NCBI GenBank assembly: GCA_001783465.1
Contig: MFMI01000008.1
Location: 702 to 26,973, forward strand
DNA length: 26,272 nucleotides
Origin: Candidatus Kaiserbacteria bacterium RIFCSPLOWO2_02_FULL_54_13
Lineage (GTDB): Bacteria; Patescibacteriota; Minisyncoccia; Phycocordibacterales; Phycocordibacteraceae
Direction: 5' to 3'
The notes beneath the pieces are model-generated. The model was not told where the DNA came from, ran no database searches, and saw nothing but the letters and a program-made list of their open reading frames with translations. Position numbers and translations under genes: made by a program. Within the stretch, counting starts at the first letter, position 1, and each line of letters begins with the position of its first letter. Positions 1,597 through 16,801 of this stretch are shown here, one piece after another.

Positions 1597-4353
1597 ATGG
1601 AATCAACGCCGAAGTTGTCCACGCCCGAAGAGGAGCTTGCGTACTTGCGCGAGGCTGTGATGCGTAAGGAGGCGGAACTTGCTGGGAACGCGCCGGAGCG
1701 CGCGCAGATTATTTCAGAGACGATTTACGAGCATCACGCCGCTCCCGCCGCAATACTCGCGAAGGGGTATCGCATAAGCGAGGCGACGAAGAAGAGCGAA
1801 GCAGAGGCGATACTCGCCGAGCTGAATCTTGGCGGGGGCGAGACTGCGATACGGAGCCTGGAGCAGGCGATGGAGGAGAAGGGGATTAAGAACACGCTCG
1901 CGGTCTTGGAGAAGCTCCATGACCCGCACGTCGCCGACGACTTCCACCGCTACCTCGTGCGCCACGTTGCGGCGGGGCTCCCCGCGCCCGGCATTGATGA
2001 GAAGGCACCGCGTTTCCAGGCGCTTCATATGACGCTTTACGAGGTCGCGCTCCCGGAGCCCAAGCCCGAGGAGCCGCAGGGGCGTACCAAGACGCTCAAA
2101 GAGCTCATTTCCGGTATGGAGCAATTCTATGCGGGACTCCTGTCGGTTGAAGATGCTGAGAGCGGCGAGCCAAGCTACTTCGCGCTTGAGCTCGCGGTGC
2201 CTGAGGACAGTCCCGAGCTCCAATTCTACGCGGCGGTGCCGAACGCGAAGAAAAATCTTTTTGAAAAACAGCTCCTCGCGATATTTCCCGATGCGCATCT
2301 GGTACCCCAGCCCTACGACTACAACGTATTCGTCTCGGGCGGCGCGACGCTCGCCTCGGTCGCCCACCTCGCAGAAAATCCGGCGCTCCCGCTGAAAGAT
2401 TACACCGATTTTGATTACGACCCGCTGAACACCATCACCAATGCCTTCGCGAAGATAGAGCGCGCGGGCGAGGGTGCGGCGCTCCAGATTATCATTGAAC
2501 CGCGCGCCGAGCGGCACGTAAAGCATTATCGGAAGATTCTGCAGGCTCTGCGCAAGGGGGAGAAGCGCGCACCGGCCTTCTCAACGCCAGAGACCATGCT
2601 CGGCGAGTTCGCGCGCGACGTCGGCAAGACGCTTTTCTCCAATAAGACCAAGGACGAGAAGAAGGCGAAGGAGGCCGAGACGCGCCAGATAGAGGCGAAT
2701 AAGGCGCACATTGAACAGGTGGAGAAAAAAATCGCGGCGCCTATCGTCGGTGCGACGATACGACTCGTCGTGTCCTCTAAAGATGAACGTACGGCGGGGC
2801 TCGTGCTCGGAGAGCTTGAGTCCGCATTCAATCAGTTCGCGAATACGCAGGGGAATCGGCTTGAATTCGCACGGGCCAATGACCGACAGCTCGCGCATAT
2901 CTTTGACGACTTCTCCTTCCGCCTGCCCGCCTCCTCGGCGCTCCCACTCTCGCTTCGCGAACTCACCACTATGTACCACTTCCCGCCCTCGGGCATTGAA
3001 TCCTCGCCGCACTTGAAGCAGGCGCGCTTCACGCACGCGGCCGCGCCGCTCTCGCTCCCGCAGGAAGGCGCGCTCCTCGGCATAAATACCTATCGCGGGC
3101 AAGAAGCGCACATTTATATAAGTCCCGAAGACCGCCTGCGCCATCTCTATGTTATCGGCCAGACCGGTACCGGCAAGACGTGGCTGTTGAAGTCAATGAT
3201 TATGCAGGATATCAAGAACGGCGACGGGTGCTGTTTCATTGACCCGCACGGCTCCGATATCTTAGACGTTCTCGCGGCAGTGCCGCCCGAACGCTACAAG
3301 GACGTCATCTACTTTGACCCGGCCGACCTCTCGCGCCCCTTCAGTCTCAACTTTCTTGAGTACGACCTCTCGCGCCCCGAGCAGAAAACCTTCATCGTCA
3401 ACGAGCTCTTAATGATATTCCGTAGGCTCTACGGCGACGTGCCGGAGAGCATGGGTCCCGCCTTTGAACAATATTTCCGCAATGCGACCCAGCTCGTGAT
3501 GGAGGACCCGAGTAGCGGCTCCACCATCCTGGATATCGCGCGCGTCCTCGCCAACAGCGAGTTCCGTCGCGAGAAGCTAGCTTCGAGCATGAATCCCATC
3601 GTGAATCAGTTCTGGAATGAGATAGCGACGAAGGCGGGCGGGGAAGCATCGCTTGAAAATATCGTCCCATACATCACGAACAAGTTTGACGACTTCACCG
3701 CCAACGACTTCATTCGTCCGATTGTCGGCCAGCAGGAATCATCATTTAAGTTCCGCGAGGTGATGGACACGAAAAAGATTTTGCTCATCAATCTCTCCAA
3801 GGGCCGCCTCGGCGAGAAGAATGCGAACCTGCTCGGGCTCATCATCGTCGGGAAGCTCTTCATGGCGGCGCTCTCACGCGCCGATAATCCGCGCGCGCCG
3901 TATCCGCCGTTTTATCTCTACATTGACGAGTTCCAGAACGTCACAACCGATTCCATCCCCGGCATTCTCTCGGAAGCGCGTAAGTATAAGCTTGCGCTCA
4001 CGGTGGCGCATCAATTCCTCAACCAAATAGAAGAGAAGACGCGCGACGCGGTCTTCGGCAACGTGGGCAATATGGCCGTCTTCCGCGTAGGCGAAGAGGA
4101 CGCCGAATTCTTCGCCAAGCAATTCGCGCCAACCTTTGAGGTATTAGATTTCGTAAGTATAGAAAATTACAATGCATACGTGAAGATTCTCGCGAAGGGC
4201 GTGCCGCAGAAGCCCTTTGACATGAAAACGCCTGACCTATCGCCTCTGAATCATGCGCAGATAGACGACCTCATCCACCTCTCGTCGCTCACCTACGGGC
4301 GCGACCGTGCTACTGTAGAGAATATGATTCGCGAGCGCTACCTCTCGCAATAA
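1597..4353 (+). CDS. HerA/VirB4/TraG-D-like P-loop ATPase (DUF87-type) with long N-terminal region
   Basis: 918 aa; Walker A 'GQTGTGKT', 'IDPHG', Walker B 'LYIDEFQN', 'LSEARKY', 'AHQ..NQ', 'GNVGN...FRVG.EDA'. Confidence 0.85.
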   Translation: MESTPKLSTPEEELAYLREAVMRKEAELAGNAPERAQIISETIYEHHAAPAAILAKGYRISEATKKSEAEAILAELNLGGGETAIRSLEQAMEEKGIKNTLAVLEKLHDPHVADDFHRYLVRHVAAGLPAPGIDEKAPRFQALHMTLYEVALPEPKPEEPQGRTKTLKELISGMEQFYAGLLSVEDAESGEPSYFALELAVPEDSPELQFYAAVPNAKKNLFEKQLLAIFPDAHLVPQPYDYNVFVSGGATLASVAHLAENPALPLKDYTDFDYDPLNTITNAFAKIERAGEGAALQIIIEPRAERHVKHYRKILQALRKGEKRAPAFSTPETMLGEFARDVGKTLFSNKTKDEKKAKEAETRQIEANKAHIEQVEKKIAAPIVGATIRLVVSSKDERTAGLVLGELESAFNQFANTQGNRLEFARANDRQLAHIFDDFSFRLPASSALPLSLRELTTMYHFPPSGIESSPHLKQARFTHAAAPLSLPQEGALLGINTYRGQEAHIYISPEDRLRHLYVIGQTGTGKTWLLKSMIMQDIKNGDGCCFIDPHGSDILDVLAAVPPERYKDVIYFDPADLSRPFSLNFLEYDLSRPEQKTFIVNELLMIFRRLYGDVPESMGPAFEQYFRNATQLVMEDPSSGSTILDIARVLANSEFRREKLASSMNPIVNQFWNEIATKAGGEASLENIVPYITNKFDDFTANDFIRPIVGQQESSFKFREVMDTKKILLINLSKGRLGEKNANLLGLIIVGKLFMAALSRADNPRAPYPPFYLYIDEFQNVTTDSIPGILSEARKYKLALTVAHQFLNQIEEKTRDAVFGNVGNMAVFRVGEEDAEFFAKQFAPTFEVLDFVSIENYNAYVKILAKGVPQKPFDMKTPDLSPLNHAQIDDLIHLSSLTYGRDRATVENMIRERYLSQ

Positions 4354-15529: not shown

Positions 15530-15603
15530 TGGTCGGGCCGCCGGGAATTGAACCCGGTCTACACGCACCCGAAGCGTGCGTACTACCGGCATACTCCGGC
15601 CCG
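15530..15603 (-). tRNA. tRNA-Pro(CGG)
   Basis: CGGGCCG/CGGCCCG acceptor, CACGC-TTCGGGT-GCGTG anticodon arm, CCGGG-TTCAATT-CCCGG T arm, ACCA end. Confidence 0.95.
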
Positions 15604-15628
15604 TTTACCCCGAACTCTGTCGAGGGGG

Positions 15629-15702
15629 TGCGCTCTATAGGATTCGAACCTATGACCTTCCGCGTGTGAGGCGGACGCTCTAACCAACTGAGCTAAGAGC
15701 GC
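15629..15702 (-). tRNA. tRNA-Val(CAC)
   Basis: GCGCTCT/AGAGCGC acceptor, TCCGC-CTCACAC-GCGGA anticodon arm, ATAGG-TTCGAAT-CCTAT T arm; CCA not fully encoded. Confidence 0.95.
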
Positions 15703-15721
15703 GCACAAGCACAATATCACA

Positions 15722-15883
15722 TCGGGCTATCGGGAATCGAACCCGATCTATTCAGCACCATTTTCACATGTCGGGATACCCGGAATCGAACCGGGACTAC
15801 AGCCACCCCATGGCCGCGTACTACCACTATACGATATCCCGTTCAAAATGGTGCTGGACGTACTACCGGTATACTATAGCCCG
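15722..15883 (-). other. Interrupted outer tRNA-Pro scaffold enclosing tRNA-Pro(GGG)
   Basis: 5' half 15883-15859 (CGGGCTA-TA-GTAT-ACCGGTA-GTAC-G) and 3' half 15750-15722 (TAGA-TCGGG-TTCGATT-CCCGA-TAGCCCG-A) pair with each other; no anticodon loop, replaced by a 14-nt inverted repeat and a whole tRNA. Confidence 0.85.
15771..15841 (-). tRNA. tRNA-Pro(GGG), nested
   Basis: CGGGATA/TATCCCG acceptor, CGGCC-ATGGGGT-GGCTG anticodon arm, CCCGG-TTCGATT-CCGGG T arm, A73; CCA not encoded. Confidence 0.93.
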
Positions 15884-15936
15884 TTCGCCTTTTGGAGTGT
15901 AGCAAACGTCTCTCGTTTCTGGTATTTTTATTCCAC

Positions 15937-16252
15937 GGGCCTATAGCCCCTCACACGAAACAACCTCGCTATGTTCTACGTTTATGTACTTCGCAGTCGT
16001 AAAGATGAAAAGTTATATATTGGATACACAGATGACCTACGCCGCCGATTATCCGAACATAACAAAGGGTTAAGTCGTGCCACAAAGTCGCGAATCCCGC
16101 TAGATTTGGTATATTACGAGGCGTACGCATCGCAGGCTGATGCTAAAGTGCGCGAGAAGCGACTCAAGTCTTCGGCCGGTGCGAACACAGCACTCAAACG
16201 TCGATTGCGGGACAGCCTGCGATAAGGATGTTTCGTGTGAAGGGGCCTATAG
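15937..16252 (+). mobile_element. Putative GIY-YIG mini-element with inverted repeats and duplicated tRNA 5' end
   Basis: GGGCCTATAG direct repeat at 15937-15946 and 16243-16252; imperfect 26/28-nt inverted repeat 15941-15966 / 16225-16252 bracketing the ORF. Confidence 0.55.
15971..16225 (+). CDS. Small stand-alone GIY-YIG nuclease (UPF0213/YhbQ-like), 84 aa
   Basis: 'FYVYVL.S......YIGYT.DL.RR..EHN.G', 'LVYYEAY', 'A..RE..LK'. Confidence 0.93.
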   Translation: MFYVYVLRSRKDEKLYIGYTDDLRRRLSEHNKGLSRATKSRIPLDLVYYEAYASQADAKVREKRLKSSAGANTALKRRLRDSLR

Positions 16253-16316
16253 TAAAGTGGTATTACGCGTCATTCGCATTGACGAGGCGGGAGTCCGATT
16301 CTCCCTAGGTCCACCA
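16243..16316 (+). tRNA. tRNA-Ala(CGC)
   Basis: GGGCCTA/TAGGTCC with G3:U70, D stem GTAA/TTAC, CGTCA-TTCGCAT-TGACG, T arm GGGAG-TCCGATT-CTCCC, ACCA. Confidence 0.92.
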
Positions 16317-16440
16317 CTTCGCTCGTAGAGTACTACGAGCTTCGCGGTGCAAGCACCATGTCAGAAAATTACGTAGACAAACCGTGTTCACTACTTGGCG
16401 AAGTGGTGCCCCGCGAAGCTATACTAGCGGAGTGGGGCCT

Positions 16441-16680
16441 ATGTATTACGTTTATATTTTAAAAAGTGGGAAAGATGGTAGCCGATACATCGGGGTTACT
16501 GAAGATTTGAAACGTAGATTATCAGAGCATAACAATGGTGGCTCTCGCTACTCCAGCAATAAACGACCGTATAAAATAATCTGGTATTCAGCATTTGTCG
16601 TTAAAGCCAGAGCACATGAATTTGAGAAATATCTTAAGTCGAGCTCGGGGTATGCTTTTTCTAAGAAACATTTGTTATAG
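16441..16680 (+). CDS. Small stand-alone GIY-YIG nuclease, second paralog, 79 aa
   Basis: 'YYVYILKS......YIGVT.DL.RR..EHN.G', 'A..FEKYLKSSSG'; ATG 16441 preferred over the track start. Confidence 0.93.
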   Translation: MYYVYILKSGKDGSRYIGVTEDLKRRLSEHNNGGSRYSSNKRPYKIIWYSAFVVKARAHEFEKYLKSSSGYAFSKKHLL

Positions 16681-16690
16681 TGCGACACAC

Positions 16691-16801
16691 GGGCCTGTAG
16701 TTCAGCGGTAAGCAGAGCTTTCTGCTTCGGCGCTCGGCAGAAGTAAATACGCAGACGCATTCACTTCGCCTTACTTCTTGCAGTAGAACGCATCCATAGC
16801 A
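16691..16801 (+). pseudogene. tRNA-Ala-like 5' fragment with a 75-nt insertion in the D-loop
   Basis: GGGCCTG-TA-GTTC-AGCGGT [insert 16710-16784] A-GAAC-G-CATCC-ATAGCAT; D stem GTTC/GAAC restored on removing the insert; no 3' half found. Confidence 0.7.

Follow-up and report, generated by a model that had tools for sequence, protein, structure and literature searches.

Few known genes are as strongly conserved or as compact as tRNA genes. In bacteria, they are not known to be interrupted by anything but group I introns. The locus described here is a 108-nt cassette that carries a complete tRNA-Pro(GGG) between inverted repeats and lies inside a second tRNA-Pro gene, in the genome of a member of the Candidatus Kaiserbacteria. 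The closest described systems share some of its features.

Integrative elements at tRNA genes, such as prophages and genomic islands, target a tRNA, often in the anticodon loop, compensate with tRNA sequence that they carry, and leave a tRNA fragment behind as a scar. In these respects the cassette is like them. It differs in its cargo, which is a whole tRNA and almost nothing else, with no integrase. Both halves of the target survive, rather than one duplicated segment, and there are no attL/attR direct repeats. The ends of the cassette are instead inverted repeats, and repeated insertion into the newly delivered copy is possible.

Short palindromic elements form another point of comparison. 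These include REP sequences and REPINs with RAYT, RPE, mitochondrial double-hairpin elements and MITEs. Like the cassette, they are short non-coding hairpin insertions that are tolerated within genes, and they form families of sequence-related copies scattered over lineages. The host genome also encodes RAYT-like Y1 proteins, and a RAYT might conceivably mobilise the cassette. Unlike the palindromic elements, the cassette appears to carry a functional gene with the same role as its target, is confined to tRNA loops, and shows no target duplication at its junctions.

Homing-type insertions include group I introns in tRNA anticodon loops and free-standing GIY-YIG genes. An example of the latter is T4 SegB, which lies in a tRNA gene cluster. 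The cassette has in common with homing insertions that it is polymorphic for presence or absence at a conserved RNA gene, that its junctions are clean, and that flank homology has apparently helped it to spread. GIY-YIG genes also share the tRNA island with the nest; across nested loci, the statistical link between the two is weak. Unlike homing insertions, the cassette has no ribozyme and no endonuclease gene, and rescue comes from a spare gene rather than from splicing.

Finally, archaeal tRNAs can be interrupted by introns with a bulge-helix-bulge (BHB) motif, split, or permuted. As in the cassette, a complementary helix brings two tRNA halves together. Archaeal tRNA introns are also found in the anticodon loop or close to it, and certain ones contain cargo RNAs. 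The cassette differs in being bacterial, in having no BHB motif, and in occurring in a genome where neither EndA nor RtcB was found. In addition, the outer gene cannot regain its anticodon arm.

Layout of the Locus

The source of the sequence is a metagenome-assembled genome of 32 contigs (682 kb, 94.6% complete). The window, meaning the whole 26,272-nt stretch of DNA that was analysed, comes from contig C8. Read on the minus strand, the composite at 15722-15883 consists of two 14-nt inverted arms that enclose a complete tRNA-Pro(GGG), with the halves of a second tRNA-Pro outside them (Table 1). A sequence-only reading of the window had proposed this nested layout, and it is borne out part by part.

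Table 1. Components of the nested tRNA locus and neighbouring features, in window coordinates.
Feature	Position	Strand	Evidence
Outer tRNA-Pro 5' part, 25 nt: acceptor 5' strand, D arm, position 26	15859-15883	-	Pairs 7/7 with 15723-15729
Left cassette arm TCCAGCACCATTTT	15845-15858	-	13/14 positions pair with 15751-15764
Spacer GAA, 3 nt	15842-15844	-	Direct reading
Inner complete tRNA-Pro(GGG), 71 nt	15771-15841	-	ARAGORN call; Rfam tRNA 54.7 bits
Spacer CATGTG, 6 nt	15765-15770	-	Direct reading
Right cassette arm AAAATGGTGCTGAA	15751-15764	-	Complementary to left arm; matches GTGCGGGG-type arm family
Outer tRNA-Pro 3' part, 29 nt: variable loop, T arm, acceptor 3' strand, A73	15722-15750	-	
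tRNA-Val(CAC), downstream neighbour in conserved tRNA island	15627-15702	-	ARAGORN, Rfam, island comparison
tRNA-Pro(CGG), next island gene	15530-15603	-	ARAGORN, Rfam, island comparison
GIY-YIG cassette: 84-aa gene (15971-16225) between inverted repeats	15937-16252	+	Pfam GIY-YIG, E = 4.5e-16

The stems of the outer tRNA are complete: the acceptor stem pairs at 7/7 positions, all of them Watson-Crick, the T stem at 5/5, and the D stem at 4/4, including one G.T pair. That these stems pair despite differing from the inner ones had been noted in the same reading. It had likewise described a 14-bp helix with one mismatch, which corresponds to the 13 of 14 paired positions in the arms and their single C.A mismatch. 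Being inverted repeats, the arms are able to form a hairpin.

The minimum free energy fold of the composite is a cloverleaf within a cloverleaf (-66.3 kcal/mol, z = -3.6), with an energy that none of 200 shuffles matched. ARAGORN and Rfam detect the inner gene only and leave the outer halves unreported. A promoter and terminator scan of the locus was uninformative.

The same arrangement is found in sequence assembled elsewhere. Logan contigs from two sequencing runs (X1 and X5) span 15675-16272, a total of 598 nt, and a contig from a third run (X13) spans 15675-16106, in each case with 0 differences and 0 gaps. The runs are public groundwater and soil samples from different studies, assembled independently. 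Since these contigs show no difference and no gap, the arrangement is real DNA and neither a binning nor an assembly chimera.

The Resident Gene and the Inner Gene

The identity of the outer gene can be read from relatives within the genus. Its halves are identical at 52/54 positions to the stand-alone tRNA-Pro(GGG) of two genomes (G011 and G030). The 5' part matches at 25/25 positions and the 3' part at 27/29, where both differences belong to one compensated T-stem pair. The flank 3' of the outer gene, followed by tRNA-Val(CAC), is common to the Pro(GGG) locus of another relative (G013). Genus relatives have a conserved tRNA island of Val(CAC), Pro(CGG), Pro(GGG) and Ala, and plain Pro(GGG) genes hold the same position in this island, giving filled and empty alleles of one site. 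The empty form is seen most directly in a contig from run X14. Here the same halves are joined by an ordinary 17-nt GGG anticodon arm, which stands exactly in place of the 108 nt at 15751-15858.

The match of the halves, the ancestral downstream flank and the X14 contig together identify the outer gene as the resident, orthologous tRNA-Pro(GGG). By the same comparison, the 108-nt cassette took the place of exactly the 17-nt anticodon arm of that gene. With its anticodon arm replaced, the outer gene is unable to decode. Its original identity was Pro(GGG) rather than Pro(TGG). The substitute tRNA in the cassette reads in the orientation of the resident gene. A search of relatives for the outer halves with and without the insert, which the sequence-only reading had proposed, yielded uninterrupted Pro(GGG) genes in G011, G030 and the X14 contig.

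A separate orphan T arm with an acceptor-like strand lies on contig C31 (3231-3252); its 22 nt are identical to the outer T arm of the nest. Matching stretches of 20-22 nt occur in many relatives, and a search for a 5' partner of the C31 copy found none.

According to a genome-wide ARAGORN run, the inner gene is the sole Pro(GGG) of this 94.6% complete genome, and it is presumed to be the working gene. Its halves agree at 54/54 positions with a stand-alone Pro(GGG) at another locus (L104) and at 52/54 with the Pro(GGG) of a Candidatus Paceibacterota metagenome-assembled genome, compared with only 44/54 positions shared between inner and outer halves. On these alignments, the inner Pro(GGG) belongs to a sequence lineage distinct from that of the outer gene.

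The 25-nt 5' end of the inner tRNA occurs as a plain gene with unrelated flanks in three genomes. No source locus was found for the arms and spacers of the cassette: a 21-mer running from the final bases of the left arm through the GAA spacer into the first bases of the inner tRNA had no match in metagenome contigs, and a junction 16-mer, searched across the genus with 3 mismatches allowed, gave noise at control level only. Duplication of the gene together with its own flanks was considered as an origin and rejected, since the arms are unlike the flanks of the outer gene.

Nested tRNA Genes across the Patescibacteria

Nests can be recognised by two T arms spaced too closely for tandem genes. 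This pattern is present in 10 of 222 genomes of the genus and in 32 of 401 genomes drawn evenly from the phylum; the reversed control gave 0 in both sets. By this pattern, the nest described here is unique to its own genome (G000) among the 222. The identities of parsed nests include Arg, Pro, Thr, Leu, Gly, Ile, Val, Glu and Lys, and the inner and outer anticodons are mostly identical within a nest.

A second pattern, in which a new Pro gene begins 10-30 nt after the 5' part of a tRNA-Pro, was found in 58 metagenome contigs representing 43 distinct units. Some nests are recursive, with stacks of three or four levels (L131, L141, L123); in L131, decay is furthest advanced in the outermost shell.

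The helix formed by the two arms, here called the clamp, is at least 10 bp long in 75% of units. Its mean length is 12.8 bp, compared with 6.1 bp for arms combined from different units. A clamp that directly replaces the anticodon arm, abutting position 26 and the variable loop, is also present in L128, L140, L176 and L197-L199.

The arms fall into sequence families. Those of the present nest have a C-rich left end and a G-rich right end, and belong to a CCCCGCAC/GTGCGGGG subfamily. The left arm has homologues in the CCCCGCAC-type arms of L128, L106, L118, L176 and L171, and the subfamily also occurs in a further Pro cassette (L154) and in Ile, Arg and Thr cassettes of unrelated contigs. C-rich and G-rich arm motifs accompany 35-37% of clamped tRNAs, compared with 6-9% of plain tRNAs. 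Relative to L128 and L118, the arms show one covarying pair (A-T versus C-G), and the C.A mismatch is a C-G pair in L128.

Within 49 clamps, G.U pairs number 30 and A.C pairs 20, which is not a significant excess (p = 0.2). The clamp may therefore be a palindrome at the level of DNA as much as an RNA helix, and the claim that it is certainly an RNA-level helix was dropped.

Judged by sequence, CCCCGCAC/GTGCGGGG cassettes throughout the phylum bracket whole tRNAs and lie in the anticodon region of tRNA genes with the same identity. The locus fits this class in its complete same-identity tRNA within the anticodon region, its pairing outer halves and its inverted arms. Given its nearly undecayed shell, the nest is probably recent. 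A literature search found no description of tRNA genes nested within tRNA genes in bacteria.

At several other loci (L106, L140, L128, L138, L132, L143), the T loop of the outer tRNA-Pro shell often contains an additional structured insert, which in L106 and L140 is a double hairpin of 30 nt showing compensatory changes. In L118, L150 and L155, inserts lie in the variable region and are bounded by CCCCG and CGGGG ends.

A Second Nest in the Same Genome

The window contains no tRNA-Pro(TGG), and one had been thought missing. The genome-wide ARAGORN scan that had been called for located an intact copy on contig C15 (4044-4115). This gene is itself nested. At about 3960-4240 on the minus strand (locus L071), an older Pro(TGG) encloses it, and the clamp is 12 bp long. 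Downstream of the inner gene are a perfect T arm and acceptor strand, and two hairpins. Upstream is the 5' part of the older Pro(TGG), split by a 79-nt repeat element at the TA of its D loop.

Relatives display the history of this site. Five have an intact older Pro(TGG) at the orthologous position, and thus an empty site; at least six are filled or decayed. In G028 the nest is kept with its T loop deleted, G002 and G025 have partial outer shells, and in G023, G010 and G034 only a shrunken 5' remnant is left, immediately before the inner gene. Compared across these genomes, the shell at C15 decays until the inner gene alone remains at the locus. Between the clamps of G000 and G028, one pair differs with full compensation and four further changes are of the G.U type; none of these differences disrupts the helix.

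The sequence-only reading had held that an intact Pro(TGG) elsewhere, together with decay of the outer halves in relatives, would reduce the nest to a pseudogene relic. That description suits the sister nest on C15. At the locus in the window, the shell is nearly undecayed.

Other fragments and repeats lie near tRNA genes. The repeat element, 75-80 nt long, sits at the D-loop TA of redundant Pro and Ala tRNA copies: at about 4144-4222 on C15, at 16710-16784 in the window, at 418-493 in L100 (G036), and downstream of Pro(GGG) in L105. Genus relatives have up to about 10 copies per genome. At 16691-16801 in the window, a tRNA-Ala-like 5' relic with an interrupted D loop lies directly upstream of an intact tRNA-Ala(GGC). 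A Gly(TCC) gene on C15 (2480-2760) has a clamp, and its own last 16 nt are repeated downstream. The first 17 nt of a Met(CAT) gene on C23 (8552-8700) are copied 61 nt upstream, and a Ser 3'-end fragment lies near Ser(TGA) at about 11181-11199 on C5.

Proposed Mechanism

We consider it probable that a replacement cassette with a spare Pro(GGG) broke the resident gene and supplies a substitute for it, the shell being a relic. The earlier interpretation of the locus as an inverted-repeat tRNA cassette inserted into a tRNA-Pro gene is supported by the comparative data; a processing arrangement, offered beside it, is not, for reasons given below.

In the proposed scheme, the composite would be transcribed from the promoter of the resident gene, and the paired arms would set the inner tRNA apart as a domain of its own. 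RNase P and 3' processing enzymes would then free the inner tRNA, possibly following a cut of the clamp by RNase III, which the genome encodes. The released inner tRNA would do the decoding. The outer pieces, having no anticodon, would be discarded as non-functional relics and would eventually decay.

The cassette itself would have arrived as DNA. One route may be site-directed insertion into the anticodon loop; another may be recombination, through the tRNA halves, with the already filled copy of a relative. The clean junctions, the inverted ends, the recursion into the newest copy and the spread across lineages would fit either a hairpin-directed, transposition-like step or such recombination. 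The enzyme for entry might be one of the two RAYT-like Y1 transposases of the genome or one of its many small GIY-YIG nucleases.

The cassette is most likely mobile. Neither the insert nor its junctions contain a transposase, an integrase, an ORF or a target duplication. As no enzyme, excised form or target duplication was identified, it is from the distribution of the cassettes only that mobility is argued. A model based on a tyrosine recombinase, of which the genome has a single one (contig C24), was rejected: under it, an overlap would be duplicated at both junctions, which their sequences do not show. The two RAYT-like Y1 genes (on C18 and C14) score below the curated cut-off and are unlinked to the cassette. 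Three reverse transcriptases of about 330-350 aa (on C16, C23 and C14) are also encoded in this 0.68-Mb genome, and one of their genes adjoins one Y1 gene.

The GIY-YIG cassette in the window (Table 1) is docked on tRNA-Ala(CGC), and a repeat of that tRNA's initial 10 nt flanks it; its gene starts 88 nt beyond the nest. In G007 and G029, its closest homologues precede tRNA-Val(GAC) in the same layout. The family is present in 179 of 222 genomes of the genus, and a member lies within about 2.7 kb of the nest at about 6 of the 43 distinct Pro loci. Because only the closest homologues adjoin tRNAs and few nests have such a gene nearby, GIY-YIG was set aside as an established driver and kept as a candidate. 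A second small GIY-YIG gene (98 aa) lies at 16382-16700, in an inverted-repeat cassette at the 5' end of tRNA-Ala with a short repeat of the tRNA start.

A further reading goes beyond simple replacement. In it, the cassette is a new kind of selfish element that homes specifically to the tRNA anticodon loop, pays for the damage with a complete spare tRNA rather than by splicing, and is driven by a nuclease or transposase of the host. We offer this tentatively, as a real possibility that falls somewhat short of an even chance. As portable homology arms, the tRNA halves that survive would allow it to cross species boundaries. Each newly delivered copy would itself be a target, which would produce Russian-doll stacks. 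The driver would be a host-encoded, hairpin-specific enzyme, either RAYT-like Y1 or small GIY-YIG.

The 16S rRNA gene of this genome, at about 16495 on C16, is seemingly interrupted near position 1390 by an insert with a T-arm-like hairpin, and an approximately 400-nt tmRNA-like gene with G3:U70, at about 21420-21823 on C19, is missed by ARAGORN.

Alternative Explanations

Several observations do not sit easily with the replacement cassette. In many metagenome nests, the outer 3' halves, which were not selected by the search pattern, retain fully paired T and acceptor stems. Where outer genes have additional inserts, these sit in loops and not in stems. Lastly, the design in which the clamp takes the place of the anticodon arm recurs in distant lineages, which is unexpected for a random deletion derivative. 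The perfect 3' halves and the placement of inserts in loops could reflect selection on the outer fold.

These same observations speak for a reading in which the outer body and clamp are selected as RNA, for instance as a scaffold that insulates the inner pre-tRNA and presents it to RNase P, III or Z, or as a stable, tRNA-like two-piece RNA with its own role. Such a role is also favoured by the upkeep of the clamp although arm sequences diverge widely, by the compensated or G.U-type nature of the differences between the G000 and G028 clamps, by the pair that covaries in comparison with L128 and L118, and by the presence of RNase III. Against it, the ratio of G.U to A.C pairs in the 49 clamps gives no RNA-strand signature, the C15 nest loses its outer parts and its clamp through decay in several species of the genus, and relatives work with a plain Pro(GGG). 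The decay series at C15 and the plain genes of relatives argue, as far as comparison of sequences goes, against a required function of the shell here. We regard a functional scaffold as unlikely.

A one-off accident of illegitimate recombination or repair might also have placed a foreign Pro(GGG) at the site, with no dedicated element involved. In favour of this, the nest is found in one of the 222 genus genomes searched by the two-T-arm pattern, and the site has no transposase, integrase or target duplication. Against it, the same architecture, with sequence-related arms, occurs in dozens of unrelated contigs and with other tRNA identities. The same genome holds a second nest, and nests are recursive. 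This recurrence largely refutes an accident, which we consider quite improbable.

If the 108 nt were instead a true intron, their removal by splicing would be followed by ligation of the outer halves to give a working tRNA. The position of the insertion in the anticodon region is suggestive of this, and the outer exons of some other family members, among them L118, L182 and L185, would rejoin to a perfect anticodon loop. At the present locus, the arms abut position 26 and the variable loop, so that no anticodon loop is possible. Nor is there a BHB motif at the junctions: the clamp is continuous except for the one C.A mismatch, and the loops beside the inner acceptor stem are of 3 nt and 7 nt, with a helix of 7 bp, not 4 bp, between them. 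EndA (PF01974) and RtcB (PF01139) gave no match in the 94.6% complete genome, and control genomes did give matches.

Self-splicing fares no better. Between 15500 and 16100, the group I intron model RF00028 finds nothing, even at E <= 10, and an insert of 108 nt that already contains a tRNA is too small for a group I core. The same model detects the intron of a tRNA-Asn in this genome with 82.3 bits. Ribozyme or intron families were absent both from the window and from eight other nested loci. With no splicing enzymes, ribozyme or BHB motif found, the 108-nt insert is not a spliced intron, and we give the intron reading very little credence.

The processing arrangement mentioned above, in which ligation of the outer pieces would yield a tRNA centred on TGG, is not supported either. 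The resulting CATGGTG loop would have neither U33 nor a purine at position 37, Pro(TGG) is already present elsewhere in the genome, and the failure to find the splicing enzymes or any intron or ribozyme family match applies equally here.

The intron detected by RF00028 lies in the anticodon loop of tRNA-Asn(GTT) at about 18690-19030 on C13 (L200), a tRNA that ARAGORN misses.

Finally, the idea that two strain variants of a Pro(GGG) gene were wrongly joined, for which the origin of the sequence as a metagenome-assembled genome of 32 contigs might speak, is refuted by the identity of independently assembled contigs over the entire unit. The longest exact word common to inner and outer genes is only 9 nt, and we regard such a wrong join as next to negligible.

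Implications

Standard tRNA finders report the inner gene of a nest only, and the relic halves around it can be mistaken for split or intron-containing tRNAs. Annotation of tRNA genes is affected accordingly. The relic shells also offer a built-in stratigraphy, by which successive insertions can be ordered. As a design, the natural nest resembles the engineered "tRNA scaffold" used for RNA expression.

If the cassette is mobile, it would represent a third route by which insertion into an essential RNA gene is tolerated, besides splicing and the partial copies supplied by integrases. If true, this would explain the exchange and turnover of whole tRNA genes among the reduced genomes of the CPR.
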